Source of the DNA: Coleofasciculus chthonoplastes F2-STO-03
GTDB taxonomy: Bacteria > Cyanobacteriota > Cyanobacteriia > Cyanobacteriales > Coleofasciculaceae
Direction of reading: 5' to 3'
Assembly (NCBI GenBank): GCA_040222015.1
Contig: JAVJWO010000211.1
Location: forward strand, 1-64,000
DNA: 64,000 bases
Position numbers and translations under genes: made by a program. The notes beneath the pieces were generated by a model. It was not told the DNA's origin and ran no database searches. It saw only the letters and a program-made list of their open reading frames with translations. This document shows, piece after piece, positions 11,345 through 57,094 of the stretch (its first letter is position 1; each line of letters begins with the position of its first letter).

Positions 11345-11588
11345 TGATGTGGGATTGGGGTTGGTCATTTGAGTTCTCAGTTAATCTTTTCTCCCCCAAG
11401 GGCAGGTTTAGTCCAGTTATCGATGTGTCACAAAATGTTATCCGGGCGGGTTTAGTCAAATTTTACCGACAGGGCTAAAACGTTATGGGTAAAATCCGCC
11501 CCTAAAGATCGGCTTTCCCCGCTTCTTCAGCTTTTATCCTTTACTTTAAAAGTCAGTAGAGGATTTTTTATGGTTTTTTTATTTTTCA

Positions 11589-11727
11589 GAAACTAATTGT
11601 CCGGACGGATCGTCATTCACCCTGAAAAGGCTCCATAAACCAGTGACTAGGAGAACATTTCTTCGCTAAACTTTATCTAATGAATTGGTAGGAAAATTTT
11701 AGGAACATCTGGAATTCTAAACGGTCT
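11589..11727 (+). promoter_or_regulatory. Two ECF-type promoter candidates upstream of the SLH gene (GAAACT-N16-CGTC at 11589; GGAAC-N17-GTC at 11702)
   Basis: Match to the ECF/SigG-type consensus with correct spacing. Confidence 0.5.
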
Positions 11728-11771
11728 AGTAACTTAACAAACAAAACGATTCATGTTGGAGAACGCCTTTA

Positions 11772-13016: not shown

Positions 13017-13027
13017 ATCACCATAGT

Positions 13028-13056
13028 GTAGAGACGTAGCATGCTACGTCTCTACA
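13028..13056. repeat. REP-like palindromes (GTAGAGACG..CGTCTCTAC and GTAGGG..CCCTAC types), also near 1351, 14705, 15901, 22367, 29697, 52097, 56797, 57141, 58968, 60440
   Basis: Recurrent short GTAG-anchored palindromes in intergenic regions. Confidence 0.85.
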
Positions 13057-13106
13057 CGTTAACGATGTGTGGCAAACAGATAGGTGTTTTCGGTGTTTTT
13101 TTTACT

Positions 13107-14537
13107 TCATGATTGATTGATTGGTAACCAAACCACAAACGTTGTTCCCTGGGTTGACTCCTCCCCAGAACGGCGAATCGCTACGTCTAACTGGGGTTGA
13201 GTCCACTGGGATTGAGCTGGACTAAATACCTCGATTTGACCCTGCATTTGTTCAATCAGTGTTTTGGCGATCGCTAACCCTAAACCACTTCCCGGAATCC
13301 CTGTGTTGGCTTGTATTCCCCGATAACGCCGCTCAAATAAATGCTCTATATCGTGGGGCGGAATCCCAACTCCGGTGTCAGTAATCGCAATTCCCACCAT
13401 TGTTCTCGTCTCATCTTTGGGTTGACCCACACCCGCTTCCACATCAATTTGCCCCCCGGCGGGCGTGTATTTTAAGGCATTGTCAATTAAATTATTTAAG
13501 ACCTCTCGTAACGCCCTAGCGTTTGCCCGCACAGGGGGTAAGTCTTGGGGAATCGAGTAGCGTAACTCTAAATCCCGTTCCCCCGCGATCGCTTGGGCGG
13601 AAATGACCAGGGGTTCTAATACTTCGGTGATAGTCAATGACTCGACAATTAGGGTTTTACCCGGAAGCAAAGGAATGGCTGGTGCGTCTGTCTCTGGTTC
13701 TGAGTTAACCGGAGAAACAATTTTCCCAGTCTCGTCTGATTCGGGAAGTGGACAAGTTGCGGCGCTAGCTGATGCGGGTAAGGTGAGGGGTTCACTGGTT
13801 TGTGCATTTTTATCTAAGCACTCGTCAAAGTCTTGTAACAGTTCCTTCAAGCGATCGCTCTCCCGCACAATACTACCTGCAACGTTATGATTTTTATCAT
13901 CGGGTTGCAGTCGATTGAGTAGCAGTTTGCCAAAGGTACGCAATGCGGTTAAGGGATTGCGAAATTGATGCAGAATATCATCAAGCCGATCCCGTTGCTG
14001 TGCCTGTAGACGGCGTTGCTGAGTCCATTCCTGCTCAAACCAAGCCCGACGCCGATCCATTAAGTAGGCAAGTGTCAATGTTCCAGCGATGCGTTCAATC
14101 GCTGTCTGTTCTTTTTCATTCCACGGTCGATCATCGCGACTTGTGACTAATAATCCCATAACTACTTCTTCGTGGATGAGAGGCAAAACCATTTGCCGTC
14201 CTTGAGATAAGGTATAGTCATCCCGAGAGAGTGAGGTGGAATCGGGGACATGGTGATCGTCAGCAGGTTGAGGTAAAAGGCGAGGTACAGCTTCAGCAAG
14301 GCGGGGAATCGTGTCCGGCGGACTCATGCGATCGGGCAATGTTAACTCCGTATCCTCCTCTTCCCATATTGCCGCTTCTGGATAGACTACTACCGGAATC
14401 AGCTTAGGTTGCGCTGCCTCGTCGAGCTTATCCGTTGTTAAATATACCGCACTCAACGCCGCGCCTAGACTTTGAGTGAGGATTCCAACCTGTGATTGAC
14501 ACAAGGCGACAAATTCTGAACTAGCAGGAATGAACAT
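13107..14537 (-). CDS. GAF sensor histidine kinase, Hik2-like
   Basis: SSEFVALCQSQ N-terminus, LHQFRNPLT H-box, N/G boxes. Confidence 0.85.
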   Translation of the reverse strand: MFIPASSEFVALCQSQVGILTQSLGAALSAVYLTTDKLDEAAQPKLIPVVVYPEAAIWEEEDTELTLPDRMSPPDTIPRLAEAVPRLLPQPADDHHVPDSTSLSRDDYTLSQGRQMVLPLIHEEVVMGLLVTSRDDRPWNEKEQTAIERIAGTLTLAYLMDRRRAWFEQEWTQQRRLQAQQRDRLDDILHQFRNPLTALRTFGKLLLNRLQPDDKNHNVAGSIVRESDRLKELLQDFDECLDKNAQTSEPLTLPASASAATCPLPESDETGKIVSPVNSEPETDAPAIPLLPGKTLIVESLTITEVLEPLVISAQAIAGERDLELRYSIPQDLPPVRANARALREVLNNLIDNALKYTPAGGQIDVEAGVGQPKDETRTMVGIAITDTGVGIPPHDIEHLFERRYRGIQANTGIPGSGLGLAIAKTLIEQMQGQIEVFSPAQSQWTQPQLDVAIRRSGEESTQGTTFVVWLPINQS

Positions 14538-14976
14538 GAGAATTGCGTGATCACCACCAGAGGGCTTTTACGACAGAACCCAATAGAGGTTCCTTTTCTA
14601 TAATGTCGAACAATTGATACGACTGACTATTACCCAAAAGGTGTAGGATGACAGTCATTCGTCCTTTGTTCTTGATTATCTCCCCCATCTTCCTCATCTC
14701 CCCGACGTAGCATGCTACGTCTCTACACTGCTCCCCCGTCTTCCCCTGCCCCCTCCGGCGGATTTTTGTGAACTTTTTTAACGAAAAATTAATTTTTTTA
14801 GTAGTTATTTTTAAAGGCTCATCGCTCAAAGCCTCTTTAAAACTTAGCATTGAGGCATTTTAGGTAGATCTATCAAACCATAAAAAGATATTGATATTTC
14901 AGATTCAAGCAGATATACTTACGACGGCTTTTGTAACTAACATTACAACTGTCGGCAAAAAGAGGAGGTAAAGAGG

Positions 14977-15294
14977 TTGGCAAGAAGACGTAAGCGCAAG
15001 AGTCGCCGCCGCCAAGAGGGGCGCAAGATCCTAGAACATGTGCCTCAGTATAATCTAGAAAGCGGTGAAGATAAACCGGTTACAGCAGCACGTAAATATA
15101 TTCAATCAGCCGGGATTATTCCGCCCGCTTTGCTACTCGTTAAGCGAAATGAGCATACGACAGACCGTTATTTCTGGGCAGAAAAAGGTTTATTTGGCGC
15201 TCAATATGTTGAGGAAAATCATTTTCTGTTTCCCAGTCTGCGGGTGCTTGATACTCCTGTCGAAAAGGCTGTAGTTGCGGCTCAAAGTCGCTGA
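14977..15294 (+). CDS. DUF3155-like conserved cyanobacterial protein
   Basis: ARRRKRKSRRRQEGR N-terminus, strong RBS, downstream hairpin. Confidence 0.8.
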   Translation: MARRRKRKSRRRQEGRKILEHVPQYNLESGEDKPVTAARKYIQSAGIIPPALLLVKRNEHTTDRYFWAEKGLFGAQYVEENHFLFPSLRVLDTPVEKAVVAAQSR

Positions 15295-15607
15295 CAGAGC
15301 CAAATCTTACGAATTGACCAGTGCTTTGACACTTGTCAAGAGGCAATTCATTTCATTCCTGCTAGGGGGGTGAGATGAATTGCCTAATTTTTTATGAAGG
15401 CAGTGGTTCGACAGGCTCACCAACCAGGCAGAAGGGAAGGAGAAAGGTTGCAAAGTAGAAGAAAATGATAACTGTTGAGTATGCTTGTTGGGTCAAACGT
15501 ATCAGGAATACGTTTCTCAACCTGATCGGTTTATTAGCATTTATCTTTCGCTTCAGAATCCCCAGTGTCATGGAGACGAGTGATTTTATCATAAGGTTGG
15601 GCGACTG

Positions 15608-15812
15608 TTGTGGAATCATCCCCAAGTGCAGCGTCAACCGGGGTTAATGGAAGCGCTGAGAGTTCCACAGTTCAACCGCTTGGCATTTAGTAGCGCCATG
15701 GGACATTGGAAACGACAAGGCGTGTTAGCGGTACTCTGTTTGGATGACTTTGAAGTGCTAATCCGCCATTATCGGGACTTTGATGATGGATTCTTTGATA
15801 ACCTGCGATCGC
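15608..15812 (+). pseudogene. AAA ATPase fragment
   Basis: Walker-B-like VLCLDDFE..FFDNLRSL segment without the rest of the domain; breaks at a HIP1 site. Confidence 0.45.
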
Positions 15813-15969
15813 TTTGGAGTTATTTTAGGTGTTTGCTTGCTATTGAGTTTCTTTTTTTAGACATTAGGTAATGCTTTGTCTAAAACGGGATGCTCCCATT
15901 GTAGAGACGTTGCATGCAACGTCTCTACTAGGCGGATATATCCTAACCGCTATATTGCCCCAGCATGAT

Positions 15970-16350
15970 TTACCAATGCCAAATTTGATCGTAATTACCA
16001 AATAATCCTGGCAAATCCTGACAAGCAACTTGAGTCACACCGTTAATCATTTTCCCTTCCGGAATCCCACGAGATTTGACATCATCTGCCACAATATAAA
16101 CCGTAATTCCCTTCTCTATTGCCCGCTGCAAATCTTGATCCAGTTTAGGCGGCTGGGTTTGTTGCTTATCCCCAAACACCAATCCAGAGGCATCCTGTCC
16201 ACTTACAGCATAATTCACCGCATTCCCTCTCAGCAAAATATCTAAATCCGCACCAGCGCCTTTCATCGCTTGAGAAATCCACACCGATGGATCATCTTGT
16301 TCTTCAATCGTACAGCGATAGGCAGATTCAATGATTTGTAGCGCTTTCAT
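15970..16350 (-). CDS. DsrE/DsrF-like protein
   Basis: LLRGNAV, VADDVKSRGI motifs; third gene of a compact operon. Confidence 0.75.
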   Translation of the reverse strand: MKALQIIESAYRCTIEEQDDPSVWISQAMKGAGADLDILLRGNAVNYAVSGQDASGLVFGDKQQTQPPKLDQDLQRAIEKGITVYIVADDVKSRGIPEGKMINGVTQVACQDLPGLFGNYDQIWHW

Positions 16351-16370
16351 CTTAATATCTCCAATCCTTC

Positions 16371-16781
16371 CTATTTCGTCGCAATAATTAACGTTCCATC
16401 CGACTCACTCGCCCATTTCCATAAATCACTGGGCGCACCGCGACGACAGCCAGGAATTGCCTCTTCTACCCCTCGCTCATCTACACAAAGCCCACAATTA
16501 ATCCAATCTAATTGACACCCCTTGGCTTTGGCTTTTTCCTGGAGTGCAGCAATCCAATCTTTCGTTAAGGGATGATCTTCTTCCTCCACACTTCTCCCAT
16601 GAACCGCATTCGCGTGGGGTTTTTGATGAGCAAAGGCTAAAGAAACTGCTCCTTCGTAAGCAAAAATATTCACATTATACCCACGTTCAATTGCCTCATG
16701 AATCATCCGAAACGCCGTGGTTGTCCTTGCTTGTTCAAAAGGACCATCCATAATCGAAAAGGTTAAGGTTTTGGTACTCAT
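16371..16781 (-). CDS. DsrE/TusD-like sulfur relay protein
   Basis: IFAYEGAV and NCGLCVDERG with a Cys at the DsrE active position. Confidence 0.78.
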   Translation of the reverse strand: MSTKTLTFSIMDGPFEQARTTTAFRMIHEAIERGYNVNIFAYEGAVSLAFAHQKPHANAVHGRSVEEEDHPLTKDWIAALQEKAKAKGCQLDWINCGLCVDERGVEEAIPGCRRGAPSDLWKWASESDGTLIIATK

Positions 16782-16811
16782 TTTTTTACTTATCTGCAGT
16801 TACAGCAAAAG

Positions 16812-17129
16812 TTACAGCCAAATCGTTTTTTGTCCTTCTGCCATGGCATCAACCACAGCCGCAATGCTCGCCACTTGCACACCATTGCCCAGTTCTGTCT
16901 CTGAGATACCCCGTTCTCTCAGGGAAAAATCATCTACTAATACATTGACAGCGTTGAGACTTGCTAAACCATTCGCTGCCGCTGCACGAGCCGCTAATAC
17001 GCCATTTTCGACCAGAAACAAGGTGGTTTCATTTCCGGCATTAGCTAAATCTGATGCCAACTGATAATTTTGAGTCACTTGGGTTGAATCAAAGGAACTC
17101 CTTGATTCGATTAAGAAATACTTTGCCAT
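16812..17129 (-). CDS. DsrE/DsrH-like protein
   Basis: LFLVENGV, DDFSLRERGI. Confidence 0.75.
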   Translation of the reverse strand: MAKYFLIESRSSFDSTQVTQNYQLASDLANAGNETTLFLVENGVLAARAAAANGLASLNAVNVLVDDFSLRERGISETELGNGVQVASIAAVVDAMAEGQKTIWL

Positions 17130-17786
17130 TGGGTTTGGCTCTCCAACCGATTAGTCAAATCAAGCACTAATAATGCCAGGACTCCCAACTATAATACAGG
17201 TTTAATTTATTGGCAAGATTGATTTAGATTCACGTTTTTACGCATTTGTCAATATTTTAATTTTAAAAAATGTTTATTTTTTAATCGGTTATGTTCAATT
17301 ATGTTTATTTTTGTGTAGAAGTGGTTATTCGTCATTAGACAGGGAACACCTCGACTTCGCTCGGTGTGTCACAGGGAACAGGATAAGGTAGCGTTATCGG
17401 TGAAACATCCCCTGCACCTCAGCACCTCAGCACCCCTGCACAATTAGATTAGATGGCTAAGACAGCGCCTACTACGAACCGCGCACGTTCCTTGGAATGA
17501 AAAACGGCAAACCGTCCTGATGACAGCGTTTTGAGCCAGAAAAACAACCAAAGAAATCAAAATGACGGGAACATAATCCCTGTCCCCAGTGATCTAAGGT
17601 GTTCAGTGTTCAGGGATAATTCCCGACAATTGATAGAGTTGTCTAGGGACGTAATATGCTACGTCCGTGCATTCTCACCTACAGAGCCGACTTATCGCGC
17701 CGCAATGACCCGCATCATGTTATCTTGCTCAATTAGCGATCGCGCTTTGCTCATGCTCTCTCTCACGATGCCCAGATTGTAAAGAC

Positions 17787-18689
17787 TTGCAGACGATGAA
17801 ACCAATGAATCCTTGGCAGAAGCAGTCCCTAGCCATGCTCACCGTCGGTGTGATGGCGATGGGTAATGTCATGACTCCCAGCATCGCGAGGGCGACAACG
17901 GCGGCTAATTTAACCAAAAGCGCCGACTCGATTGAAATCTTTGTTCCACCTCCGGAACGTCGAACAAGTGGCGTTTGTCCCGATTTTTTGGGACTGTATA
18001 TCGACTCAATCATTAATCGCCCTAATTTAGCGGGGGGCAAATGGGGAATTGTCGTGGAATCCTTATCGAATCCTGCGATTTCCTACAGCCACAACGCCAA
18101 TCAACTGCTCATCCCAGCCTCCAATAACAAACTCTTTACCACCGCCGCCGCTTTACAAAGGCTGGATTCCCAAGCCTTAATTCAATCAAAGTCGTTAGAT
18201 GAATGGGTGACAGTCACCAATCAAAGAAGCAGTAACAGCTATGCGGATAGCCTCCTGCGTTACATTGGTGGACCCTCTGCCGTCAAGCAAACTTTAGCAC
18301 CATTAGGCGTTGACCCGAATAGTTTTCGACAGGTTGATGGCTCAGGTTTATCTCGGCAGAATGCAGCCACGCCGCAAGCATTAATCGCGACATTAAAAGC
18401 GATGATGTATGCCAAGGGGAATGATTTATTTTATCGTTCTTTACCCGTTGCCGGGGTAAATGGGACACTGAGAAATCGCTTACGGTTACCTGAAACTCAA
18501 GGCAAAATTCGGGCGAAAACGGGGACATTACGAGGAGTGAGAAGTCTATCTGGGTATTTAGATCATCCTTATTATGGGAAAATTCTGTTTAGCATTATGG
18601 TGAATCAACCGTCTCAGTCGGGACAGGTTTTAGTGGGGGCGATTGATGAAATTGCCTTGCGCTTGGCTCAGTTAACACCTTGTCAGTAA
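17787..18689 (+). CDS. dacB: D-alanyl-D-alanine carboxypeptidase/endopeptidase (PBP4, S13)
   Basis: PASNNK (SxxK), SSN, DGSGLSR, AKTG motifs; signal peptide. Confidence 0.88.
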   Translation: MQTMKPMNPWQKQSLAMLTVGVMAMGNVMTPSIARATTAANLTKSADSIEIFVPPPERRTSGVCPDFLGLYIDSIINRPNLAGGKWGIVVESLSNPAISYSHNANQLLIPASNNKLFTTAAALQRLDSQALIQSKSLDEWVTVTNQRSSNSYADSLLRYIGGPSAVKQTLAPLGVDPNSFRQVDGSGLSRQNAATPQALIATLKAMMYAKGNDLFYRSLPVAGVNGTLRNRLRLPETQGKIRAKTGTLRGVRSLSGYLDHPYYGKILFSIMVNQPSQSGQVLVGAIDEIALRLAQLTPCQ

Positions 18690-18887
18690 TCTTTGCTGTC
18701 AGTAGTCGGACGAAAATTAAAGTTAACGGTTGAGATTGAGATTAGGAAACAGAGAACGCAGAGGTTAACGCTTCAGTGGCACAGAGGTTTTAGCCCGGTG
18801 TGATATTTTGTGCCAGCAGCTTGTAGGGGCGCAAGGCTTGCCATCAGTGTCAACTTAAGGTGAGAACTAATACAGGGGGAGCGTTTC

Positions 18888-19033
18888 ACCCTCATCCCCT
18901 AACCCCTTCTCCCATCAAGGGAGAAGGGGAATCAGCACGATTAATGATAAAAGATGTAGCGGGCTATGTCGGGAATATAATACCTTTCTTGCTCCCCTCT
19001 CCCAAGCGTGGGAGAGGGGTTGGGGGTGAGGGC
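18888..19033. repeat. GC-rich inverted-repeat MITE-like element; related copy at 42108-42215
   Basis: CCCTCATCCCCTAACCCC..GGGGTTGGGGGTGAGGG inverted ends with internal hairpins. Confidence 0.7.
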
Positions 19034-46128: not shown

Positions 46129-46225
46129 GTAATGTTACAGAAATTCCTAAAATAGATTTTGCACAATCGCTAGTTTGTGCTTAAAAAGCCGACATTGTGA
46201 ACCATCCCCGATTTCATCACTAACT

Positions 46226-48907
46226 ATGAGAATTCTAAAAATCCAGACGTTACGCGGTCCCAACTACTGGAGCATTCGACGCCATAAACTTATTGTCATG
46301 CGTCTTGATTTGGAGGAACTCATCGATAAACCCTCCAATGTACTTCCGGGATTCTACGAGGGACTGGTAGAGACGCTACCCAGTCTAGAGGATCATTTCT
46401 GTTCTCCGGGTGTTCGGGGTGGGTTCTTAAGTCGGGTCAAAGAAGGCACGATGATGGGGCATATTATCGAACATGTGGCGCTGGAACTTCAGGAACTGGC
46501 AGGAATGCGCGTTGGGTTTGGTCGGACTCGGGAAACTGGGACAGCCGGAATTTATCAAGTTGTTTTCGAGTACATTGACGAGCAGGCGGGTCGCTATGCG
46601 GCTAGGGCGGCTGTGCGCTTGTGCCAAAGTATTATCGATACCAGAGCCTATCCCCAACGGGAGTTAGCTCAAGACTTAAAAGACCTGAGCGAACTGGCTC
46701 GCGATGCGGCGTTAGGACCGAGTACAGAAGCCTTGGTCAAAGAAGCCGACGCCCGAGGCATTCCCTGGCTTACCCTAAGTGCCAGAGCCATGATTCAGCT
46801 TGGCTACGGGTTGCATCAGAAGCGAATTCAAGCCACCTTGAGTGATTACTCCGGAATTTTAGGGGTGGAATTAGCCTGTGATAAAGAAGGGACGAAGCAG
46901 ATTTTGTTTGATGCGGGGGTTCCGGTTCCCCGAGGCACAACGGTGCTTTATCTGGACGAATTAGACAGCGCGATCGAGTATGTGGGGGGGTATCCGATTG
47001 TGATTAAACCCCTGGATGGTAATCATGGGCGGGGGATTACGATTGATATTCGCAACTGGGACGAAACGGAACAAGCCTATGATCGTGCTAAAGATATCTC
47101 CCGTGCGGTGATTGTGGAGCGCTATTATCCCGGTTTTGACCACCGTGTTTTGGTGATTAACGGGAAAGTTGAAGCCGTCGCCCAGCGGATTCCAGCACGG
47201 GTAATTGGCGATGGTAAGTCCACGGTTGAAGAACTGATTGAACGGACGAACCGCGATCCCAATCGGGGCGACGGTCATGATAACGTCCTGACGAAAATTG
47301 TCGTTGATCATACGAGTTTGAGTGTCTTAGAACGTCAGGGTTACAGTTTGGATACCGTCCTCCGAAAAGATGAGGTTTGTTATTTACGGGCAACAGCTAA
47401 TCTGAGTACGGGGGGTATTGCCATAGACCGCACGGACGATATCCACCCGGAAAATGTTTGGTTAGCGGAGCGCGTGGCTAAAATTATTGGTCTAGATATT
47501 GCCGGCATTGATATTGTCACCCCCGATATTAGCCAACCCCTACGGGACATTGACGGCGTGGTGGTGGAAGTAAATGCGGCACCTGGTTTCCGGATGCATG
47601 TCAGTCCCTCGGAAGGCTTACCGCGCAATGTCGCCGCCCCGGTGATGGATATGCTGTTTCCACCGGGACAAGCCAGTCGGATTCCGATTCTGGCGGTGAC
47701 AGGGACGAATGGGAAAACCACCACCACTCGCTTGCTTGCCCATATCTATAAGCAAACGGGTCATGGGGTTGGCTATACCACCACGGATGGGATCTACATT
47801 GGCGATCATCTGGTGGAACAAGGAGACACCACTGGACCCCAAAGCGCTCAAGTGATTCTCAAAGATCCCACGGTTGAGGTGGCGGTATTGGAAACAGCCC
47901 GAGGTGGGATTCTGCGATCGGGGTTAGCCTTTGATGCCTGTGATGTGGGTGTTGTTTTAAATGTCTCGGCGGATCACTTGGGCATTGGCGATATTGATAC
48001 CCTTGACCAGATGGCGCATCTTAAGAGTGTAGTGGCTGAATCGGTGAGTCCTGCTGGGTATGCCGTTCTTAATGCTGAAGATCCCCTAGTGACAGAAATG
48101 GCACAGCGCGTCAAAGGGCATGTGGCATTTTTCTCCATGAATCCCGACAATGAGGTGGTGAAAGCTCATACCCGCCAGGGAGGTTTAGCAGGGGTGTATG
48201 AAAATGGCTACCTATCATTAATCCGAGGCGAATGGACGCTGCGGATTGAGAAGGCGGAAAATATGCCTGTAACGATGAGAGGAATGGCACCGTTCCAAAT
48301 TGCTAATGCCTTAGCCGCTAGCCTCGCCGCCTTTGCTCAAGGGGTTCCGATTGAGGCAATTCGTGACGCTTTGACCACATTCCGGGCGTCTGTGGCGCAG
48401 ACACCGGGACGGATGAATTTATTTAATCTGGGTGAGTATCATGCTTTGGTGGATTATGCCCATAATGCCGCCAGTTATGAAGCCGTGGGCGGTTTTGTCC
48501 GCAATTGGTCCGGGGAACGGGTTGGCGTTGTCGGTGGACCTGGCGATCGCCGAGATGAGGATTTTATTAACTTGGGACGACTCTCGGCGGACATTTTTGA
48601 CCGGATCATTATTAAAGAAGATGCGGATTTACGGGGACGTCCCAGTGGTGACGCGGCGGAGTTGATTCGCAAGGGAATTCTGGAGACGAATCCGGATCGG
48701 GAGTATGAAATTATTCTCAATGAAACTGAGGCGATTAATACGGCGTTAGACCGAGTGGTGTCTGGTGGTTTGGTGGTGATTTTCCCGGAAAAGGTGAGTG
48801 GGACGATTCGTTTGATTGAGGAACGGCGTCCTCTGCCAGAGAATGGGTATCAACCCGTGGGTGAGTCTCAAGTGGATTTAAAGCCATCGGTGGCGAACCC
48901 TGGGTGA
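46226..48907 (+). CDS. cphA: Cyanophycin synthetase
   Basis: MRILKIQTLRGPNYWS, ATP-grasp (KPLDGNHGRG), Mur-ligase (VTGTNGKTT, DYAHN). Confidence 0.97.
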   Translation: MRILKIQTLRGPNYWSIRRHKLIVMRLDLEELIDKPSNVLPGFYEGLVETLPSLEDHFCSPGVRGGFLSRVKEGTMMGHIIEHVALELQELAGMRVGFGRTRETGTAGIYQVVFEYIDEQAGRYAARAAVRLCQSIIDTRAYPQRELAQDLKDLSELARDAALGPSTEALVKEADARGIPWLTLSARAMIQLGYGLHQKRIQATLSDYSGILGVELACDKEGTKQILFDAGVPVPRGTTVLYLDELDSAIEYVGGYPIVIKPLDGNHGRGITIDIRNWDETEQAYDRAKDISRAVIVERYYPGFDHRVLVINGKVEAVAQRIPARVIGDGKSTVEELIERTNRDPNRGDGHDNVLTKIVVDHTSLSVLERQGYSLDTVLRKDEVCYLRATANLSTGGIAIDRTDDIHPENVWLAERVAKIIGLDIAGIDIVTPDISQPLRDIDGVVVEVNAAPGFRMHVSPSEGLPRNVAAPVMDMLFPPGQASRIPILAVTGTNGKTTTTRLLAHIYKQTGHGVGYTTTDGIYIGDHLVEQGDTTGPQSAQVILKDPTVEVAVLETARGGILRSGLAFDACDVGVVLNVSADHLGIGDIDTLDQMAHLKSVVAESVSPAGYAVLNAEDPLVTEMAQRVKGHVAFFSMNPDNEVVKAHTRQGGLAGVYENGYLSLIRGEWTLRIEKAENMPVTMRGMAPFQIANALAASLAAFAQGVPIEAIRDALTTFRASVAQTPGRMNLFNLGEYHALVDYAHNAASYEAVGGFVRNWSGERVGVVGGPGDRRDEDFINLGRLSADIFDRIIIKEDADLRGRPSGDAAELIRKGILETNPDREYEIILNETEAINTALDRVVSGGLVVIFPEKVSGTIRLIEERRPLPENGYQPVGESQVDLKPSVANPG

Positions 48908-49426: not shown

Positions 49427-50080
49427 TCAGAATAGACTCCAACTCTGATTACCCCCCATGTAGTTGAAGAGAATAAAAGGAAACCCCACAAGATAGTGGG
49501 CAACTACAGGACCAGAAATACTTCTGAACTTCCAGTAATTTTTCCCCCATAGCCAGCCCAACAGCCAGGTTCCAGCAACGATTAAAACACTACGAAAGTA
49601 AATGTGAGAGAACGCAAAAAGACTGGCAGAGCAAAGTATCACAGCTCTCTCATGAGAGCCAATTATTTTTTCTAAAACCAGGAAAGCGAATCCTCTCCAT
49701 ACCAGTTCTTGAAATACCGACATGCCAAAATACCAGCCATAGTAACCGAACTCTAGATACAGAGAACGAGGGTAACCTAAAAACCAAGGGAGCAAAGCCA
49801 AAAATATCCAACCTAACAGAAGTAGGGACAAAGTAGAGGGCAGTATCTCACGTACTGATGAAAGCTCTAGCGAAAGCCCTAGTTTATGTGGAGCAACTCT
49901 GTTTATAGACACATAGCTTATCATGACGACTGTTGGAAAGCCGCCTAGGGTGAGAAAGAAAAACTGTCTGGTCAAAAAATCTGAATAGAGCAGCACAGAG
50001 GGCATAACAAAAGCAATGAACAATAGCCATATTTCTGGTTTTAATACTTTTATTTGTTGTAGCCATCTGAGTTTAAACAC
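49427..50080 (-). CDS. CPBP (CAAX/Abi) family intramembrane metalloprotease
   Basis: QELVWRG, FAFSH, AH motifs in a polytopic membrane protein; GGAGGG RBS. Confidence 0.82.
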   Translation of the reverse strand: MFKLRWLQQIKVLKPEIWLLFIAFVMPSVLLYSDFLTRQFFFLTLGGFPTVVMISYVSINRVAPHKLGLSLELSSVREILPSTLSLLLLGWIFLALLPWFLGYPRSLYLEFGYYGWYFGMSVFQELVWRGFAFLVLEKIIGSHERAVILCSASLFAFSHIYFRSVLIVAGTWLLGWLWGKNYWKFRSISGPVVAHYLVGFPFILFNYMGGNQSWSLF

Positions 50081-50681: not shown

Positions 50682-51752
50682 CTAATCTCTCACCTCGCGC
50701 ACGGTTATTGAAAAGCCATCTCCCAACTTAACGGCAATCAAGTCATAGCATTGCTTTCCCCTATCCGTTTGCCAACCCAATTCTTGTTCGAGTGGTTCTC
50801 CGGTTTCCACCACCTGCACGAACTTTTCAAGCAATCCTGGGGCGAGTCGATTCAGCAGTTTCTTTTGCCCTGATTTACTCGTAAGTTCTTCTCGTTTTTT
50901 CCCCAAGAGTTTGGCAAAGACGGGATTAACCAACAGATAGCGAAAGTCCACGATTTCTCCGGTGACTAAATCCCTCACCGTTTGCAGGGCGGCAATTCCA
51001 TCTCTAGAACTGTTCAACAAACTGGTGAGGAGGGCGCGAGATTGGTAGAGAATTTCTGCGGTTTGTTGATGTTTCTCGATTTGTTGTCGGAGTTCGTATT
51101 TTTGCTGTTGCAGGGTGAGGTGAGTTTGGATGCGGGCGATGACTTCTTCGGGTTGGAAGGGTTTGGTGATGTAATCCACTCCCCCAACTTGAAAGGCTTT
51201 GACTTTATCGAATATTTCGTTTAATGCACTGATGAAAATAATGGGAATGTCTGAAGTTTCTTCGTCGGCTTTCAGGGTTGAGCAGACTTGATAGCCATCA
51301 ATATCGGGCATTTTAATATCCAGTAAGATGATATCCGGGGGGTGATTGCGGACGGTTTTTAATGCCATTGTGCCGTTGGTTACGCGGCGGACTTTGTACC
51401 CCTGTTTGGTTAAGAGGTCGTTTAAAAAATGCAGGTTTTCGACGAGAGCGTCAACAATTAAGATATTGCCTTTGGGGTCTTCAATGTGGTAATTATTGCT
51501 TTGTTCTAAGAGTAAACGGCGGAACTTATTTTTGGTGACTTTTTCGTCGAGTAAGTCGGAAAGACGTTTCCATAATTGGGAGGCTAAATCTTTAATATGC
51601 CCCACGCTCATGTATAAGCGATCGGCGACGGTGCTGTAGGTTTCGTTGTCCCAGGCGGCTTTGAGGATTTCTTTTTCTGGTGCGGTGAGTTGTTTATCGG
51701 TTTTAGCTTGAAGGATAGATTCGACAAACTCTAGGGCTTCTTCAAGAGTCAT
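50682..51752 (-). CDS. Regulator with N-terminal HTH, receiver and PAS-like domains
   Basis: TY..VA..LYMSVGHIKD..LWKRLS HTH; LLDIKMP, DYITKPF receiver (acidic DD pocket changed to DA). Confidence 0.85.
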   Translation of the reverse strand: MTLEEALEFVESILQAKTDKQLTAPEKEILKAAWDNETYSTVADRLYMSVGHIKDLASQLWKRLSDLLDEKVTKNKFRRLLLEQSNNYHIEDPKGNILIVDALVENLHFLNDLLTKQGYKVRRVTNGTMALKTVRNHPPDIILLDIKMPDIDGYQVCSTLKADEETSDIPIIFISALNEIFDKVKAFQVGGVDYITKPFQPEEVIARIQTHLTLQQQKYELRQQIEKHQQTAEILYQSRALLTSLLNSSRDGIAALQTVRDLVTGEIVDFRYLLVNPVFAKLLGKKREELTSKSGQKKLLNRLAPGLLEKFVQVVETGEPLEQELGWQTDRGKQCYDLIAVKLGDGFSITVREVRD

Positions 51753-52275
51753 GGGCAGTTACGATATCATCTTATCAATGTTTTTGATGCTTGCACCCCG
51801 GTTTTTATTTTAGCTGCTCATTTCTAGAAGTTCCAACCCTTAATGAAGGTCAACCCTTCTTTTTTAAGCTTTTGGGGGAAAATACGGAGAATAAATACGC
51901 CGTTGACGTAGATAAATGTATTACAGATTTGGTGATTGAATGAAATACATTCCAGGACGTGTCTAATAGGATATAGTAACCACCATAGCGGTTAGGTTAG
52001 GACGCATCATTTTTAGGACTTACGCTTTCTTTACGGCACAGGCACGGCAATGCCGTGTCCCTACCCTAAATGGCGTTTGTGCGTAAGTCCTGATTTTGTA
52101 GAGACGTTGCATGCAACGTCTGGAACAACAGTTTGTTTCTCCTAATCGATGTGTCTACTACTATAATTGCATGGCTGCTACCTGATTGGGTTGAAAATGT
52201 ATGTAATACGGATAAGTTTTTCGTCTTACATACGGATGTGTTTTAGTGCGTGATATGGCATTCAGTGGCAACGAG

Positions 52276-52345
52276 CCGACTTTTCCAACTTTATGATCCG
52301 ACTTTCCCGACTGACAGGGGCTAGGGCGGGGAGCCATGATAGAGA
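52276..52345 (+). promoter_or_regulatory. CCGAC-repeat operator/promoter block, copy 1 (copy 2 at 57025-57094)
   Basis: 70-bp segment with four CC(G/A)AC units; 6 mismatches to copy 2 by manual count. Confidence 0.75.
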
Positions 52346-52443
52346 CATGGAAAGGATGCAGCCTCTTGCCAAAGAGCCACTGAATCCAATCCTTAGCCGG
52401 ATAAATACGGCGTCAAAGCTAGTAGATGTTCGGCAGAAAAATA

Positions 52444-52470
52444 ATGTGGATTTGGTTTCGTCGTCGATAA
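52444..52470 (+). CDS. Micro-ORF MWIWFRRR (possible alternative start 52426)
   Basis: Homologous to 55687-55716 with synonymous codon changes and the same downstream hairpin. Confidence 0.55.
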   Translation: MWIWFRRR

Positions 52471-52725
52471 AAATCCATTCTGATCGACAATTCATCAGCA
52501 ATTGAACATCGGTAATTGAAAAATCTAAGCTGAGTGTAAACTTACTACTCAGCTTAGTAATAATTCATCCCGATAATAACAACCAACGTAGTAAATGGAG
52601 CGCAGGCGAAATCATACCGCACTGGACTATATTGGGGCGGAATTTTGGATGCAAGAAAAAAGGAACAGAAGCCTGTTCCTTGATAGTTTTCACAACCTAT
52701 TGGGTTCACTACCAGTTTTTAAGTC

Positions 52726-53586
52726 ATGTCAAATTCTCAATCAGCTAGTGCATCAGGCATTCGGGGTTGCTCTGAAGAGTTAGAGAAAGCATTTTGGCAG
52801 CTATGGCAGCAGAATCGAGATTATCTTTACCGTTGCTGTCTCAAGTGGATGGGTGGGAATCCTACTGATGCGGAAGAGGCGCTCAGTCGGGCAATGCTCA
52901 AAGCTTGGGATAAATTGCCGGATCATGCCGAAAAAATCACTAATTTCAGAGCTTGGCTCACCCGATTAATTCATAATCTCTGTATCGATATACACCGAGA
53001 ACGTCGCCGGAAAGCCATGCAAATGGAAAGTATTGAAGAAATAGCCGCTAGAGACAACTCAGCGGTTATTTCTTGTTTGGACTCTCCTGAATTAGCACTT
53101 CTATATCATGAGTTTGGACAGTACCTTCGCCGCGCTATCGATACTCTTCCTTCTCGACTACGCACTCCGTTTGTTCTGCGTTACTACCACCAGATTTCCT
53201 ATCAAGAGATAGCCCAACAACTCGCCATCTCGCTCGATAACGTTTACAAGCGCATCCAACAGGCACGAGATATTCTGCAAAAGCGTTTGAGTAGGTATTT
53301 TTCAGGGTTGGGTGATTCTTTGTTCGATTCCCCCCAGTTCAATACTGCAAGGGATACCTCTCCCCCAACCCCTCTCTTTGTAGGAGAGGGGTGTATTGCT
53401 CCGGCTTATCTAGGGGGGGTTAAAGCCAGATGTGAGCAATCTGATGAAACGAGGATATCCGATTTGACCGCCGCGATCGCTACCGAGTGCATGAACGAGA
53501 CAATTAATTATCACGTCACAGCATCATGTCTAGAAACACTGCACTACGGATGGTATCGCTCACTCTCTCCTCTGGGGTGGAACTGA
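52726..53586 (+). CDS. ECF sigma-70 factor with C-terminal extension
   Basis: DAEEALSRAMLKAW..FRAWL..NLCID (region 2); LP..R..F.LRY..SYQEIAQQL (region 4). Confidence 0.92.
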   Translation: MSNSQSASASGIRGCSEELEKAFWQLWQQNRDYLYRCCLKWMGGNPTDAEEALSRAMLKAWDKLPDHAEKITNFRAWLTRLIHNLCIDIHRERRRKAMQMESIEEIAARDNSAVISCLDSPELALLYHEFGQYLRRAIDTLPSRLRTPFVLRYYHQISYQEIAQQLAISLDNVYKRIQQARDILQKRLSRYFSGLGDSLFDSPQFNTARDTSPPTPLFVGEGCIAPAYLGGVKARCEQSDETRISDLTAAIATECMNETINYHVTASCLETLHYGWYRSLSPLGWN

Positions 53587-55292
53587 ACGCTTACCTGGTT
53601 TTAGACGAAAAGCCAATCCGAATTGACCAGAAGCTGAAAACATTAAGTCAGTACGTGCAACAGTATCCCTCTGGATGGAAGAAACGGTTGGAATTGGCGA
53701 ATCTGCTATACGCAATGGGTTCCATTGAGCAGGCGGTTGAGGAGTATCGCCAAGTGATTTCGCGGCAACCCCTATTGATTGAGGTACGGTTGAAGTTGGG
53801 GAAACTCTTACAGCTCATGGGACAAGAGGTTGAGGCAATAGCGGTTTATGAGAGTGCCTTGCCCTTGGTTCGCAATCAGGCGACTCGGCAGCATATTGGT
53901 GGATTGATAGCCGTTTGTAGAGGTGACAGTCAGTCAGCAAGTCAGGCTTTTGAGTCAGCGGCTTCCCTGGAACCTGACAATGCGGCTCACTGGCTGGCGT
54001 TGGGGCAGGTGCAGATGGGGAGGGAGGATGGGGTTGCAGCTTTGCGAGTGTTTGATACGGTTTTGTCACTGAACCCGGATGATATTGTAGCGCTGATTGG
54101 CAGCTATGATGCGAGTCGGGCAGTGGGGAATGTTCGGGAAGCGCAGCGGCGGTTGAGCAGAGTGCTAGAGTTGGCTCCTGGTGATTTCCGGGCGCTCAAA
54201 CGACTGGCGGATATTCGTTGCCGGACGAGATTGGTATCCGGTGAAGAGGGGAAGCAAACCAAACAGATCATTAGTTGTGTTCTGCAACTGGCTCCTGATG
54301 CGGCAGATGCCCATGAGTTACTGGCATATTATCACCTTTTCCGAAAGGAGTGGGCGAAAGGGGTAGGGGTGTTGGAACAGTTTACTAAGGAACACCCGAA
54401 TAATCCGAGGGGTTGGTATTACTTTGGGCGGTGCTTGTTCCAGATGGGGGAATATCAGAGGGCGGCTGAGGTGATGCTGAAGGCTTATCGTCTGTATCCC
54501 CAAGATTGTGAAATTTATCGGGCGTTGTGTGAGATTTTGCCTGTAACCTCTCCATCTACCCCTCTCGATCCCCCCCAGCCCCCTAATCCCCCCTGCTTGG
54601 TAAGGGGGGACGTTAGAAACAGGGGGGAGTCAGAGGAGGCAACGCTTTCTAACTGCACGGGGGGAACTCCTCTCAAAGTCCCCCTTTTTAAGGGGGATTT
54701 AGGGGGATCTAACCGTCAAGTAACCCTTGCATCAATAGTAAAAGAGATGCTGGAGCGGTTTCCTGAGCGCTGGAGTGTTTGGACGACGGCGGGGCGGGTG
54801 CTGGTGGAAAGCTTTCAGGCAGTTGAGCGGGGGTGTAGTGTCTCTCTTCAGGGAACGCAACTTCAGCCGCAGTTGCCGGATGCTTGGTTTTGTCATGGGC
54901 GGGTGTTGGCGCTGGCGGGGAAATACGGAGAGGCGATAGAGGCGTTGCAGCATGGATGGCAGTTGTTGCCCCAAGAGGGGAGTTATCTGCAATCGGTGTC
55001 TGCGGCGGTGTGGCTGGGGGAAAGTTATCGGGTGTTGGAGGATGAGGTGGCGAGTCGGAAATGGTTGGAGGAGGCTTGTCAGTTTGCTCAGGAATTGATG
55101 GAGTTTGACCCAGCGATGGCTTGTTACTGGCAAGGGAGAGCGTTGTTGGGGTTGGGAGATATCAAGGGCGCAGTAGAGGCGTATCGAAGTGGGTTGAGTC
55201 AGCGGTTGCTCTACCCTTTTCGTGGGGAGGTTGAGTCGGCTGTGAAACGGTTGAAAGGTAGGGGACGAAAGGGTTCTCGTGCTAAAGCGTAG
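53526..55292 (+). CDS. Tetratricopeptide repeat protein overlapping the ECF gene
   Basis: Multiple TPR units; in-frame palindromic repeat insertion ~54548-54710. Confidence 0.9.
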   Translation: MSRNTALRMVSLTLSSGVELNAYLVLDEKPIRIDQKLKTLSQYVQQYPSGWKKRLELANLLYAMGSIEQAVEEYRQVISRQPLLIEVRLKLGKLLQLMGQEVEAIAVYESALPLVRNQATRQHIGGLIAVCRGDSQSASQAFESAASLEPDNAAHWLALGQVQMGREDGVAALRVFDTVLSLNPDDIVALIGSYDASRAVGNVREAQRRLSRVLELAPGDFRALKRLADIRCRTRLVSGEEGKQTKQIISCVLQLAPDAADAHELLAYYHLFRKEWAKGVGVLEQFTKEHPNNPRGWYYFGRCLFQMGEYQRAAEVMLKAYRLYPQDCEIYRALCEILPVTSPSTPLDPPQPPNPPCLVRGDVRNRGESEEATLSNCTGGTPLKVPLFKGDLGGSNRQVTLASIVKEMLERFPERWSVWTTAGRVLVESFQAVERGCSVSLQGTQLQPQLPDAWFCHGRVLALAGKYGEAIEALQHGWQLLPQEGSYLQSVSAAVWLGESYRVLEDEVASRKWLEEACQFAQELMEFDPAMACYWQGRALLGLGDIKGAVEAYRSGLSQRLLYPFRGEVESAVKRLKGRGRKGSRAKA

Positions 55293-55309
55293 ATACCTCG
55301 AAAAAAATA

Positions 55310-55356
55310 GCCTCTAACTCGAAAAATTCAGAAATTGACCTGTGGAATCGTCTTAT
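55310..55356 (+). promoter_or_regulatory. ECF-like promoter repeat, copy 1
   Basis: GCCTCTAACTCGAAAAATTCAGAAATTG-N8-AATCGTCTT; ATTCAGA-N16-CGTC geometry. Confidence 0.7.
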
Positions 55357-55686
55357 AGGTGTAGAGACGGAAGACACTCACCTTGATTTAATTCAGGAGT
55401 CGAGAGAACATCACTCCTTTAACCACATTCCGACTACTTGCCTAACCTCTGCTATTTAGTATTTAAAACAGCAGAAATACTGAGAATTAATCCGAGCTTT
55501 TTATTTTTGAGTTTGGGTTAATTTTCATTTGATCACTTTAGATATTTAGAGTAAATTAAAGTTTATGTAAATTCTAGATTTTAACCTTGACATTTATATT
55601 ACTTGTCAATTACCTTTAAAAAAGGTTGAAGATAAAAACTCAACCGACAAAACAAGTAAACCTAGTAAAAAAGGAGAGAAAGGAAG

Positions 55687-55716
55687 ATGTTTATTCGTTG
55701 GTTCCGTAGGTTTTAA
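55687..55716 (+). CDS. Micro-ORF MFIRWFRRF
   Basis: Purine-rich RBS (AAGGAGAGAAAGGAAG); paralog at 52444. Confidence 0.6.
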   Translation: MFIRWFRRF

Positions 55717-55904
55717 AAATCAATTCTGATCGGAAATCCATCAGTAATTGAAAATTGATGTAGGGTGGGCACTGCCGTCAGCGCCTACCCTACATCTTTT
55801 GTTGCTGACCTCAACTCGATGACAAAATTTGGTGCAATGGGTAGAAATTAGACTTCTCGTGCTTGAAGTAGGTTTGATGGGGTGCATCGAGTTGGGAAAA
55901 AACT

Positions 55905-55949
55905 GCCTCTAACTCGAAAAATTCAGAAATTGCTTTTTGAAATCGTTTT
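55905..55949 (+). promoter_or_regulatory. ECF-like promoter repeat, copy 2 (directly upstream of the protease gene)
   Basis: Same 28-bp core, variable spacer, AATCGTTTT. Confidence 0.7.
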
Positions 55950-55988
55950 CTTAATGTAAGGAAATCGACTCTAAAAAGAGGAGAAAAA

Positions 55989-56528
55989 ATGCCCCTAACA
56001 CCATTGAAACAAATTCAGCAAGACACATGGCTTCACTGCGGAGGAGGTCCTGCACGCAACGGTGTTTGTTACTATATGTGTAACTTCATTGAGAGTGACA
56101 AAGGTCCTTGGAATAACCCAGGCTCGTTCGCTAATGCAGTCACAGCGGCACAAAACTTTGCAAGTGGGACAGCAATGATGAATTACGCGAAAGCGCAGAA
56201 CTTAAGAGTAGCTCCACAACAACAATATCAAACTGTGCCGGGCGCATTAGTAACGAACCGTATATACCGCGCTGGGTTATGGGTAGGATCTAACCCGCCA
56301 GCTTCGGGAGATGGGAACCACGAAATAATAATTGTCACCGGAAATAACGACGACATAATTTATTTTGAACCCAACTTTGGGTTCTATCAAGCAAGCAACC
56401 CTGGGTTTAACAATCGGCAAGCCTTGGAGTATTTCATTAACCAACAATACACTGGAACGCCAGTGGCTAACTTCCGCTATTACAATGTGCGAAGTAACTC
56501 CTCAGCCACTCCGAAGGGTTTTAACTAA
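55989..56528 (+). CDS. YopT/AvrPphB (C58)-like papain-fold cysteine protease, stand-alone
   Basis: NGVCYYM (Cys), GNHEIII (His), YFEPNFG (acidic residue in the F.PN.G motif); GAGGAG RBS. Confidence 0.65.
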   Translation: MPLTPLKQIQQDTWLHCGGGPARNGVCYYMCNFIESDKGPWNNPGSFANAVTAAQNFASGTAMMNYAKAQNLRVAPQQQYQTVPGALVTNRIYRAGLWVGSNPPASGDGNHEIIIVTGNNDDIIYFEPNFGFYQASNPGFNNRQALEYFINQQYTGTPVANFRYYNVRSNSSATPKGFN

Positions 56529-56665: not shown

Positions 56666-56890
56666 ATTTGAAGGAAGGCGATATCCTGCTCTCAGGGAAG
56701 TTGAGGAAGCTGCGAAACAATTAGAACCTATGCTGTCGAAGGCTTCTCGTTCTTGAGGTTAGTTTCACTGTTAGGACTTACGCAGCTGCTCTAGATGTAG
56801 GGTGGGCAATGCCCACCTTACTACTATGCATAGTGTTAAAAAAGTAAATTTGCGTAAGTCCTGACTGTGTACATTGAGTTAGAGAAAAAA

Positions 56891-56937
56891 GCCTCTAACT
56901 CAAAAAATTCAGAAATTGATGACTGAAATCGTCTTAT
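56891..56937 (+). promoter_or_regulatory. ECF-like promoter repeat, copy 3 (upstream of the ABC exporter)
   Basis: GCCTCTAACTCAAAAAATTCAGAAATTG-N8-AATCGTCTT. Confidence 0.7.
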
Positions 56938-57024
56938 AAGTGGACAGGCGAAAGGAAGAAAATCCAATCACTCCCCTGCCTCCCTGCTCCAAGAACTCCC
57001 TCACCTCCTTCTTCACAGAACAAT

Positions 57025-57094
57025 CCGACTTTTCCGACTTTACGATCCGACTTTTCCGACTGACAGGGGCTAGGGCGGGGAGTGATGATGGAGA
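57025..57094 (+). promoter_or_regulatory. CCGAC-repeat operator/promoter block, copy 2
   Basis: CCGAC at 57025, 57034, 57047 and 57056. Confidence 0.75.

Follow-up and report, generated by a model that had tools for sequence, protein, structure and literature searches.

In a stretch of 64,000 nucleotides from the cyanobacterium Coleofasciculus chthonoplastes F2-STO-03 (assembly GCA_040222015.1, contig JAVJWO010000211.1, positions 1 to 64,000 of the forward strand; hereafter the window), two very short open reading frames (ORFs), encoding MWIWFRRR and MFIRWFRRF, lie on either side of a gene pair for an extracytoplasmic function (ECF) sigma factor and a tetratricopeptide repeat (TPR) protein. 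As judged by sequence comparison, these micro-ORFs belong to an undescribed family of predicted genes, 5–13 codons long, whose peptides are rich in arginine and aromatic residues and whose carriers are filamentous cyanobacteria of a single order. It is probable that they are real peptide genes acting in trans. The fuller explanation that we favour, which falls somewhat short of being probable as a whole, is that they are stand-alone, diversifying micro-peptide genes whose trans-acting products would most likely be the ligand or signal of the regulatory module of the surrounding gene island.

Altogether, 21 distinct micro-ORFs of 5–13 codons were collected, to which two atypical ones are added (23 peptides); 11 are of the D3 type and 10 of the D1 type, D3 and D1 being conserved elements upstream of the respective cassettes. 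The D3-type micro-ORFs come in the order conserved leader, AACAAGTAAACCT-like box, Shine–Dalgarno (SD) site and micro-ORF, and include, besides the first window copy, MRRWLPPRPRR (G026; G and L numbers are our handles for genomes and loci), MFRPFRRWFLW (G003), MMIWRPRGGRF (G030), MRGYR (G116), MWRRP (G127), MLIIS (L089), MLFLFRWFGL (L127, L138), MYIFLRIF (L148), MIMWFRRWW (L149), and MIILSRLPWFYRF (L150). The D1-type set comprises 10 cassettes in 9 genomes or contigs, the window included, and each is built of D1, a short leader, box and SD, micro-ORF, tail, and a canonical terminator; the peptides are MFIRWFRRF (the second window copy), MFRFRGF, MKSRWF, MRFRRGF, MLRRGSF, MRRWRF, MWRPIRFF, MRFGRPF, MYRIR, and MRRIR. 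The nine cassettes orthologous to window copy 2 thus carry differing R/F/W peptides of 5–8 residues, with D1 placed ≈ 95–150 nt 5′ of the micro-ORF in all nine and with seven of them sharing 0.98 pairwise identity over D1. In one genome (G082) two cassettes stand in tandem, each with its own D1 and terminator, their tails being identical while codon 2 differs. The TPR gene ends just 5′ of the D1-type cassette at all nine loci (the window and 8/8 relatives, by tblastn).

The way in which the sets were assembled bears on how their composition is to be read. The first D3-type listing used a composition filter, and a re-scan of 87 unique stretches downstream of D3 was therefore made unfiltered: an SD-preceded ATG ORF of at most 20 residues was found at +148 to +194 in 11 of the 87, and these 11 are the listed micro-ORFs behind a strict D3 core together with the two atypical ones, MCIKINGRYFCRPR and MRTKKIIKTKKVERYNPR. 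The remaining short ORFs of the re-scan fall within the sigma coding region or the promoter. The D1-type set was obtained by a composition-filtered scan for SD-preceded R/W/F micro-ORFs, followed by a search by flank homology. Among 100 relatives, a search with the tail motif returned one true orthologue (G026) and one chance match within a coding region (G038), and in the upstream regions of sigma paralogues (30 loci; filter W ≥ 1, R + K ≥ 2) a micro-ORF was found in the window and G026 only.

The composition of the predicted peptides is frame-specific. Across the 12 typical D3-type micro-ORFs, the 93 residues after the initiating methionine comprise 27 R, 16 F, 13 W, 10 I, and 9 L, followed by 7 P, 4 G, 3 Y, 2 M, and 2 S, while D, E, K, N, Q, T, H, A, V, and C do not occur at all. 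W, F, and R together make up 60% of these residues, as against 22% (standard deviation 4%) in mononucleotide shuffles, none of 20,000 of which reached the observed value, and as against 21% and 15% in the other two frames of the same micro-ORFs. With the two atypical ORFs added the proportion is 51%, versus 19% in shuffles (0/20,000); in the D1-type set without the window copy it is 71%, versus 16% (0/20,000), with arginine written as AGA 7, CGT 7, CGA 5, CGC 2, AGG 1, and CGG 1 times. In the six cassettes that were retrieved by flank homology alone, W, F, and R account for 21 of 31 residues (hand count). Taken overall, the share of these three residues is 60–74%, versus 16–22% in nucleotide shuffles.

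Over the 10 cassettes the mean pairwise DNA identity is 0.86 in D1, 0.73 in box and SD, 0.42 in the micro-ORF region, 0.61 in the tail, 0.93 in the terminator, and 0.83 past the terminator, so the micro-ORF is the least conserved DNA of the D1-type cassette. A frame that is kept, with a composition that is constrained and a sequence that outpaces the flanking non-coding DNA, is in our reading that of a diversifying product, and not of a neutral spacer or a cis-regulator. The first-pass annotation of the window had proposed two paralogous micro-ORFs under selection at the peptide level; such selection is strongly supported by the 21 homologously placed micro-ORFs and by the frame-specific composition tests.

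Within the window, both micro-ORFs read as that annotation had described them, and their shared WFRR is indeed retained through synonymous codons, TTT/TTC and CGT/AGG differing between the copies. A 58-nt direct repeat (52452–52509 versus 55698–55755, 79% identity; family D4) spans the 3′ half of each micro-ORF and the tail. With as many as 3 mismatches allowed, the window holds two matches to the tail motif against 0.00 expected (100 shuffles); the motif is found twice in the window and twice in the whole genome (7.72 Mb), both times at the sigma–TPR locus, so that the two copies are a local paralogous pair; a dispersed repeat or miniature inverted-repeat transposable element was ruled out on this count, and BLAST of copy 2 matched only itself. 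Scanning the whole window against Rfam gave no family at the gathering thresholds. Longer overlapping ORFs at 52293–52505 (+, 70 aa), 52262–52501 (−, 79 aa), and 52595–52783 (+, 62 aa) were rejected as true genes, being without a Pfam match; the 70-aa frame crosses the D3 repeats and is interrupted by a ≈ 29-nt indel in G026. Also set aside as irrelevant were four BLAST matches of 29–30 nt to the DNA of micro-ORF 1, which lie inside a conserved coding gene (G011, G045, G035, G019), and two exact 20-nt matches in a conserved stretch elsewhere (G004 and contig C175 of the window genome).

Several details of the original description needed correcting. CTAGTA does stand 25 nt 5′ of each ATG, at 52419 and 55662, but the two sites are not homologous: that of copy 1 is part of the leader element GCTAGTAGATGTTCGG, and that of copy 2 is part of the AAACCTAG box. 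The equal spacing is a coincidence, because copy 1 has lost ≈ 29 nt, holding the box and the SD, that its G026 orthologue keeps; micro-ORF 1 is consequently without an SD. The ribosome-binding site of copy 2, described as strong, is purine-rich and has two SD-like cores, but these are spaced ≈ 10 nt and 1 nt from the start; its orthologues read GGAG, 7 nt, ATG, a more ideal spacing than that of window copy 2. The CTGAT/ATCAG stem is present after both micro-ORFs and in copy 2 extends to an 11-pair hairpin (hairpin A), but in copy 1 the hairpin is weak on its own: the copy 1 tail, in which the 3′ arm is duplicated (52493–52508 and 52507–52522, repeat D9), folds at −5.9 kcal/mol (z −0.33), as compared with −13.3 kcal/mol (z −4.0) for the longer form in G026. 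The “same hairpin” after both micro-ORFs is lineage-specific, other lineages carrying unrelated hairpins past the stop. A stop-side hairpin of z ≤ −2 follows 9 of 12 micro-ORFs, in sequences unrelated between lineages, the exceptions without a strong hairpin being copy 1, L150 (z −1.4), and L089 (z +0.28). We looked for co-variation between the peptide and hairpin A and found none, the same hairpin type following very different peptides. When copy 1 is folded to minimum energy, the first part of its micro-ORF (GUGGAUUU) is paired with the conserved AAAUCCAU lying just past the stop (52444–52482), which would occlude the start codon; this pairing was not seen for copy 2.

The 11-bp stem noted between copy 1 and the sigma gene (hairpin B) proved to be real and conserved, with 13 pairs, 5 of which show compensatory double changes among 7 sequences. 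It is part of a 160-nt cassette that is present in some relatives and absent in others, Microcoleus-type sigma leaders being without it; a homologue of the terminator-like hairpin C further downstream occurs also in Microcoleus leaders that are without the cassette. Copy 2, on the other hand, is a complete unit. Its stem at 55757–55796, followed by CUUUUGUUG, is a GC-rich stem-loop with a U-tract, as expected of a Rho-independent terminator, and hairpin A and the terminator fold together at −42.2 kcal/mol (z −7.8). The three D1 copies in the window precede, respectively, the micro-ORF cassette, a gene for a 179-residue orphan protein, and the region of the second D3 copy and an ATP-binding cassette (ABC) exporter gene. 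D1 may be a promoter or a processing site. We considered it as an ECF-sigma-dependent promoter and found this unsupported: half of D1 also occurs in G003, which has no close homologue of the sigma factor, and no ECF-type −35/−10 spacing was readable in D1 by eye.

Features of the sigma–TPR island and of the two micro-ORF cassettes in the window
Feature	Coordinates	Strand	Evidence or remarks
Response regulator: HTH-like N-terminus, REC, PAS	50682–51752	−	Pfam Response_reg 4.3e-29, PAS_4 7e-4
D3a, promoter-like direct-repeat element	52270–52345	+	76-nt repeat with D3b, 89% identity
Sigma-leader cassette of 160 nt, with micro-ORF 1, its tail, hairpin B, and flank	52434–52593	+	
Micro-ORF 1, MWIWFRRR	ATG 52444 to TAA 52470	+	Orthologues 5′ of sigma in G026, L149, L150
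Tail of copy 1	52471–52522	+	CTGAT 52480–52484 / ATCAG 52494–52498 stem
Hairpin B, conserved stem-loop without U-tract	52525–52557	+	RNAalifold on 7 D3-type leaders
Hairpin C, terminator-like, in the sigma leader	52660–52681	+	9 pairs, tail GATAGTTTTC
ECF-type sigma factor	52726–53586	+	Pfam Sigma70_r2, Sigma70_r4_2; NCBIfam sigma70-ECF 94.9 bits (cut-off 42.9)
TPR protein, 588 aa	53526–55292	+	Pfam TPR families
D1a, conserved upstream element, 70 nt	55304–55373	+	Repeat family D1
Box (AACAAGTAAACCTAG), then purine-rich SD region	55651–55686	+	0.73–0.82 pairwise identity across cassettes
Micro-ORF 2, MFIRWFRRF	ATG 55687 to TAA 55716	+	Read from the sequence
Hairpin A of copy 2 (CAATTCTGAT ... 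ATCAGTAATTG), 11 pairs	55720–55751	+	Fold
Intrinsic terminator, 18-pair stem 55757–55796, U-tract CTTTTGTTG	55757–55803	+	Inverted repeat I14
Further D1 copies, D1b and D1c	55899–55968 and 56885–56954		Three copies in the window
179-aa protein, no known family	55989–56528	+	No Pfam, NCBIfam, or PADLOC match
D3b, second D3 copy, 5′ of the ABC exporter	57019–57094	+	Repeat with D3a
ABC exporter half-transporter, TMD + NBD, 555 aa	57243–58910	+	Pfam ABC_membrane, ABC_tran

The D3 element consists of four CCGACTTT(T/Y) direct repeats. In D3a the layout is CCGACTTTT, CCGACTTTA, a 4–5-nt spacer, CCGACTTTY and CCGACT, then GACAGGGG and then CATGATAGAGA, with a sigma-70-like match at 52311–52340. Queried with the D3 leader, 33 of the 401 genomes of the order gave matches. 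The exact D3 core was found at 35 loci in a species-genome collection, with Microcoleus, Tychonema, Coleofasciculus, Symploca, Caldora, Aerosakkonema, and Crinalium among those named, and at 41 metagenome loci, at least 6 of which look like chance matches in unrelated GC-rich DNA; every named record, including those of Microcoleus, Coleofasciculus, Tychonema, Symploca, and Crinalium, belongs to what we take to be a filamentous genus. D3 stands in front of genes for sigma factors and ABC exporters and of sulfotransferase-like and S8-peptidase-like genes (the last two by eye). The response regulator is transcribed divergently from D3, and a protein with the same N-terminus is so placed in 5/5 relatives' loci with context (by eye); its N-terminal 95 residues have a weak Sigma70_r4 match (E 2.6e-4, 20.9 bits against a cut-off of 24.1 bits). 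Since G003 and G030 have D3 without a close sigma homologue, the response regulator, and not the sigma factor, would be what acts at D3, and D3 looks like the binding site of this regulator. In G003, G030, and G116 the response regulator gene appears to be broken up into two or three ORFs (L115 1049–2121, L116 4560–5665, L118 4449–5668), and the ABC gene has been lost in G116, where only the C-terminal end of a methyltransferase remains past the micro-ORF; the locus appears to be decaying.

Of the other island proteins, the sigma factor has a poorly conserved C-terminal extension of ≈ 95 residues, its relatives' frames running from 215 to 444 residues, and its gene overlaps the start of the TPR gene by 61 nt (53526–53586) in another frame. 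Within the TPR ORF, a short G/C-block repeat (CCCCCTTTTTAAGGGGGATTTAGGGGGATC) lies in frame in a linker at 54673–54710; its depth of 11,000–19,000 and many loose ends in the RNA-library contigs described below mark it as a highly repeated element common to many organisms. The 179-residue orphan, which was not found in the 100 relatives, scored 0.95 in an ESM feature search to clusters with Peptidase_C58 on 28–57% of their members (a lead only), and has a Cys followed ≈ 100 residues on by a His (by eye); it is possibly a YopT-type (C58) cysteine-peptidase-like protein. The ABC exporter has no peptidase domain, its best NCBIfam matches being to MsbA, HepA, and TAP-like proteins, all below the cut-offs, and its orthologues close the island at the loci with enough context (G026, G003, G030, G127, L082, L107, L164, L089).

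Each genome has a different cargo in the interval from the micro-ORF to the ABC exporter (L036 (G026) 1707–9832; L115 2909–6452; L116 6413–10473). Represented in it are a lipoxygenase, a trypsin-like peptidase, a ShlB/FhaC-type pore, DUF2589 proteins, a Big_1 protein, and a number of orphans. In G030 and G127 the ABC gene is followed by that of a class I methyltransferase. Just 5′ of the window island lie genes for a cyanophycin synthetase (46175–48907) and a CPBP/Rce1-like intramembrane protease (49427–50080), the latter not being beside the response regulator in G026. The genes found after the cassette are of at least six kinds, unrelated to one another: the sigma factor, the C58-like orphan, a Cys-rich membrane or secreted protein, a 326-residue orphan, the ABC exporter, and a methyltransferase remnant.

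Logan contigs with at least 90% likeness to the window were taken from four metatranscriptome runs. Contigs of 299–304 nt span 55462/55467–55765, including micro-ORF 2, in 3 of the 4 runs, with 25–27 differences and hence a relative's sequence, which is a weak hint of expression. In 3 of the 4 runs, contigs join 52433 to 52594, giving the sigma leader without exactly the 160-nt cassette, a clear sign that this cassette is a presence/absence module. There was no contig cover at 55791–56474, the contigs stopping at 55765; the source relatives differ in gene order.

How might such genes work? In the mechanism that we propose, the D3 or D1 upstream element would drive a regulated short transcript, D3 probably being bound by the divergent HTH–REC–PAS response regulator; the box with its SD site would direct translation of the micro-ORF, and the hairpin or terminator would end or stabilise the transcript. 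The product would be a cationic Arg/aromatic peptide whose composition is kept while its sequence diversifies quickly, which may leave via the ABC exporter or pass between filament cells and would act in trans as a cognate ligand or signal, the TPR protein controlling the ECF sigma factor. That the genes act in trans is suggested by their stand-alone and tandem architecture, the varied downstream genes, the presence/absence polymorphism, the hypervariability of the peptides, and the failure of a switch in folding to appear (see below). Granting trans action, a role as signal or regulatory ligand is quite possible, though we would stop short of calling it probable; we favour it because of the invariable place beside the sigma–TPR pair, the five-residue members, the pherotype-like variation, and the presumed filamentous habit of all named carriers. 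More specifically, the leaderless, hypervariable peptides could be ligands that switch the ECF sigma factor via the TPR protein, as strain-specific pherotypes controlling an island of secreted effectors, a proposal that we regard as rather doubtful in this explicit form.

A number of observations weigh against this explanation. Translation of the micro-ORFs is predicted indirectly, from SD and ATG, frame-specific composition, and the RNA-library contigs over micro-ORF 2, and these contigs come from relatives ≈ 91% identical, show no starts, ends, or strand, and may include DNA. Many D3 loci, such as the Microcoleus sigma leaders, are without a cassette, as the 11 of 87 stretches show, and the D3-type copies sit in 5′ leaders, just where a cis-acting leader peptide would be expected. 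MLIIS has neither Arg nor an aromatic residue, three D1-type cassettes (L082, L107, L059) were first found via the composition-filtered scan, and copy 1, without its SD, may be decaying. As to the receptor, Pfam recognises neither a DNA-binding nor an anti-sigma domain in the TPR protein. The idea that it senses the peptide, put forward with the first description, has circumstantial backing in that the cassette follows the TPR gene at 9/9 loci, but it does not hold universally: G003 and G030 have a micro-ORF, response regulator, and ABC exporter, while their best sigma matches are of 35–36% identity, so a TPR/sigma receptor cannot be the universal target.

The peptides might instead be exported antimicrobial, allelopathic, or membrane-active micropeptides, leaderless and pumped out by the ABC exporter, which act on competitors or on membranes in company with the C58-like peptidase, lipoxygenase, trypsin- and S8-type peptidases, and two-partner secretion pore, all putative effectors. 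The cationic-aromatic composition, the exporter, and the effector-like cargo speak for such a role: the peptides are rich in W, F, and R and wholly without acidic residues, Trp/Arg-rich short peptides being a known class of minimal antimicrobials; they are constantly co-located with the exporter; and fast diversification together with a variable cargo would fit an arms race. Yet several members have five residues only (MRGYR, MWRRP, MYRIR, MRRIR), which is short for membrane activity, and some are without Trp and Phe. Although Lys usually takes the place of Arg in such peptides, none of the 12 typical D3-type peptides contains it and the D1-type set has a single one (MKSRWF). No immunity gene recurs consistently, and loci that have no micro-ORF carry the exporter equally. 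We therefore think this explanation unlikely, though worth keeping in view, and we would say the same of a membrane-active effector role if the genes are taken to act in trans.

Two further explanations would do without a trans-acting peptide. If the micro-ORFs were cis-acting leader peptides, their translation or stalling would alter the hairpins and so set read-through into the sigma gene, the C58-like gene, or the ABC exporter gene, with Arg, Trp, and Pro acting in the ribosome tunnel or as sensor codons. Leader-peptide attenuators of the trp/his/erm type have a short ORF with a good SD in a 5′ leader, followed by hairpins, and the D3-type copies share this layout, lying between a promoter-like element and the first gene, with a hairpin past the stop in most cases and with hairpin B conserved through compensatory changes; nascent chains rich in W, R, and P are moreover typical of arrest peptides. 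However, the D1-type copies are complete, stand-alone units that end in a canonical terminator, with a fresh D1 before the next gene and with tandem units in G082, and a stable unit of leader ORF and gene, as in classical attenuators, was not found, the same sigma gene having the cassette or being without it and at least six unrelated gene kinds following. These downstream genes are non-biosynthetic, and none is linked with the metabolism of Arg, Trp, or Phe. Within the cassette it is the peptide that is conserved least, without any C-terminal motif fixed in position, and anything from 0 to 25 nt separates the stop from the hairpin. When the last five codons and 13 nt are kept unpaired to imitate a ribosome standing at the stop, 7/7 leaders nevertheless form hairpin B, and no alternative, mutually exclusive anti-terminator pairing appeared in these constrained folds (folding only, a weak test). 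Attenuation, one of three roles suggested at first, is the least supported of them, and we consider a leader peptide distinctly improbable. In the other explanation the cassettes are small RNAs or structured leaders, and the frames are a by-product of an RNA motif rich in U and G. What is conserved in the cassette is indeed non-coding (D1, box, tail, terminator, hairpin B), a GTGGT(T)-like motif recurs in several micro-ORFs, once out of frame (MRGYR), and the lack of an Rfam match leaves room for a new RNA. But the composition bias is frame-specific and is lost in nucleotide shuffles, Arg is written with all six codons, the SD-to-ATG spacing and the stop codon are kept across the 21 micro-ORFs (window copy 1 itself being without an SD), and a small RNA is normally most conserved in its seed, whereas the micro-ORF is here the least conserved. 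An RNA-only product thus seems very improbable.

Set against known systems, the predicted micro-peptide genes share features with several and differ from each. PatS and PatX are very small peptide genes of filamentous cyanobacteria (PMC7761841, PMC7377430) with a defining RG(S/T)GR motif (PMC7761841). The likeness lies in a tiny gene for an Arg-containing peptide in filamentous cyanobacteria, under a regulated promoter, with a peptide thought to move between cells and here presumed, like PatS, to feed back on a transcription regulator. The motif itself is in 0/23 of our peptides, RGGR in MMIWRPRGGRF being nearest; in contrast to PatS/PatX, the micro-ORFs are shorter (5–13 codons), have no N-terminal part to remove and no link to HetR, are hypervariable, and have an ECF sigma–TPR pair and an ABC exporter as neighbours.

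The RRNPP systems (Rap/NprR/PlcR/PrgX, Rgg, AimR) belong to Firmicutes and their mobile elements (PMC10075063). As there, the peptide gene adjoins the gene of a cytoplasmic TPR protein (9/9 D1-type loci), the peptides diversify from strain to strain as pherotypes do, and the expected mature size is 5–10 residues. An RRNPP peptide, however, is processed from a propeptide with a secretion or pro-region, while here the whole ORF has 5–13 codons (21/21), and an RRNPP receptor carries a fused HTH or phosphatase, while the 588-residue TPR protein matches TPR families only (Pfam, NCBIfam), so that its output, we infer, would have to run through the separate ECF sigma factor. Two of the three testable features of RRNPP membership are therefore lacking, and two genomes, moreover, have the peptide gene without a close homologue of the sigma factor. 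By analogy, the proposed pherotype circuit could correspond, in cyanobacteria, to RRNPP or PatS signalling, with its wiring leading to an ECF sigma factor; we think this parallel doubtful.

Biarylitide precursors, which are peptides synthesised by the ribosome and then modified post-translationally (RiPPs), offer a precedent in size, a five-residue precursor being encoded by an 18-bp gene adjacent to that of a cross-linking cytochrome P450 (PMC13417212). They show that genes of only five codons can be functional and yet escape annotation, and the peptides are aromatic-rich in both cases; but the P450 is required there, and neither a P450 nor any other recognised RiPP enzyme was found among the 11 window proteins and 13 proteins from relatives' neighbourhoods that were scanned, the methyltransferase after the ABC gene occurring at 2 loci only. 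A text search of the literature for the D3 core found no paper, although journals outside the searched literature may hold a description, and the abstracts surveyed on cyanobacterial small proteins and leader peptides, on RRNPP in cyanobacteria, and on Microcoleus ECF sigma factors and small ORFs describe nothing like this micro-ORF family.

Annotation does not see genes of 5–13 codons, of which very few are known to be functional. In the present case an entire family of such micro-genes can be recognised from its cassette of upstream element, box, SD, and terminator, which provides a simple search handle for more. The family combines clear selection at the peptide level and fast diversification with fixed partners, namely a response regulator, an ABC exporter, and the pair of ECF sigma factor and TPR protein. 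Should the peptides be effectors, they would be among the smallest gene-encoded bioactive peptides. If they are signals, they would form a peptide pheromone-like system that is the first to be linked with an ECF sigma factor, and a second principle of peptide signalling, beside PatS, in multicellular cyanobacteria, including mat- and bloom-forming Microcoleus.

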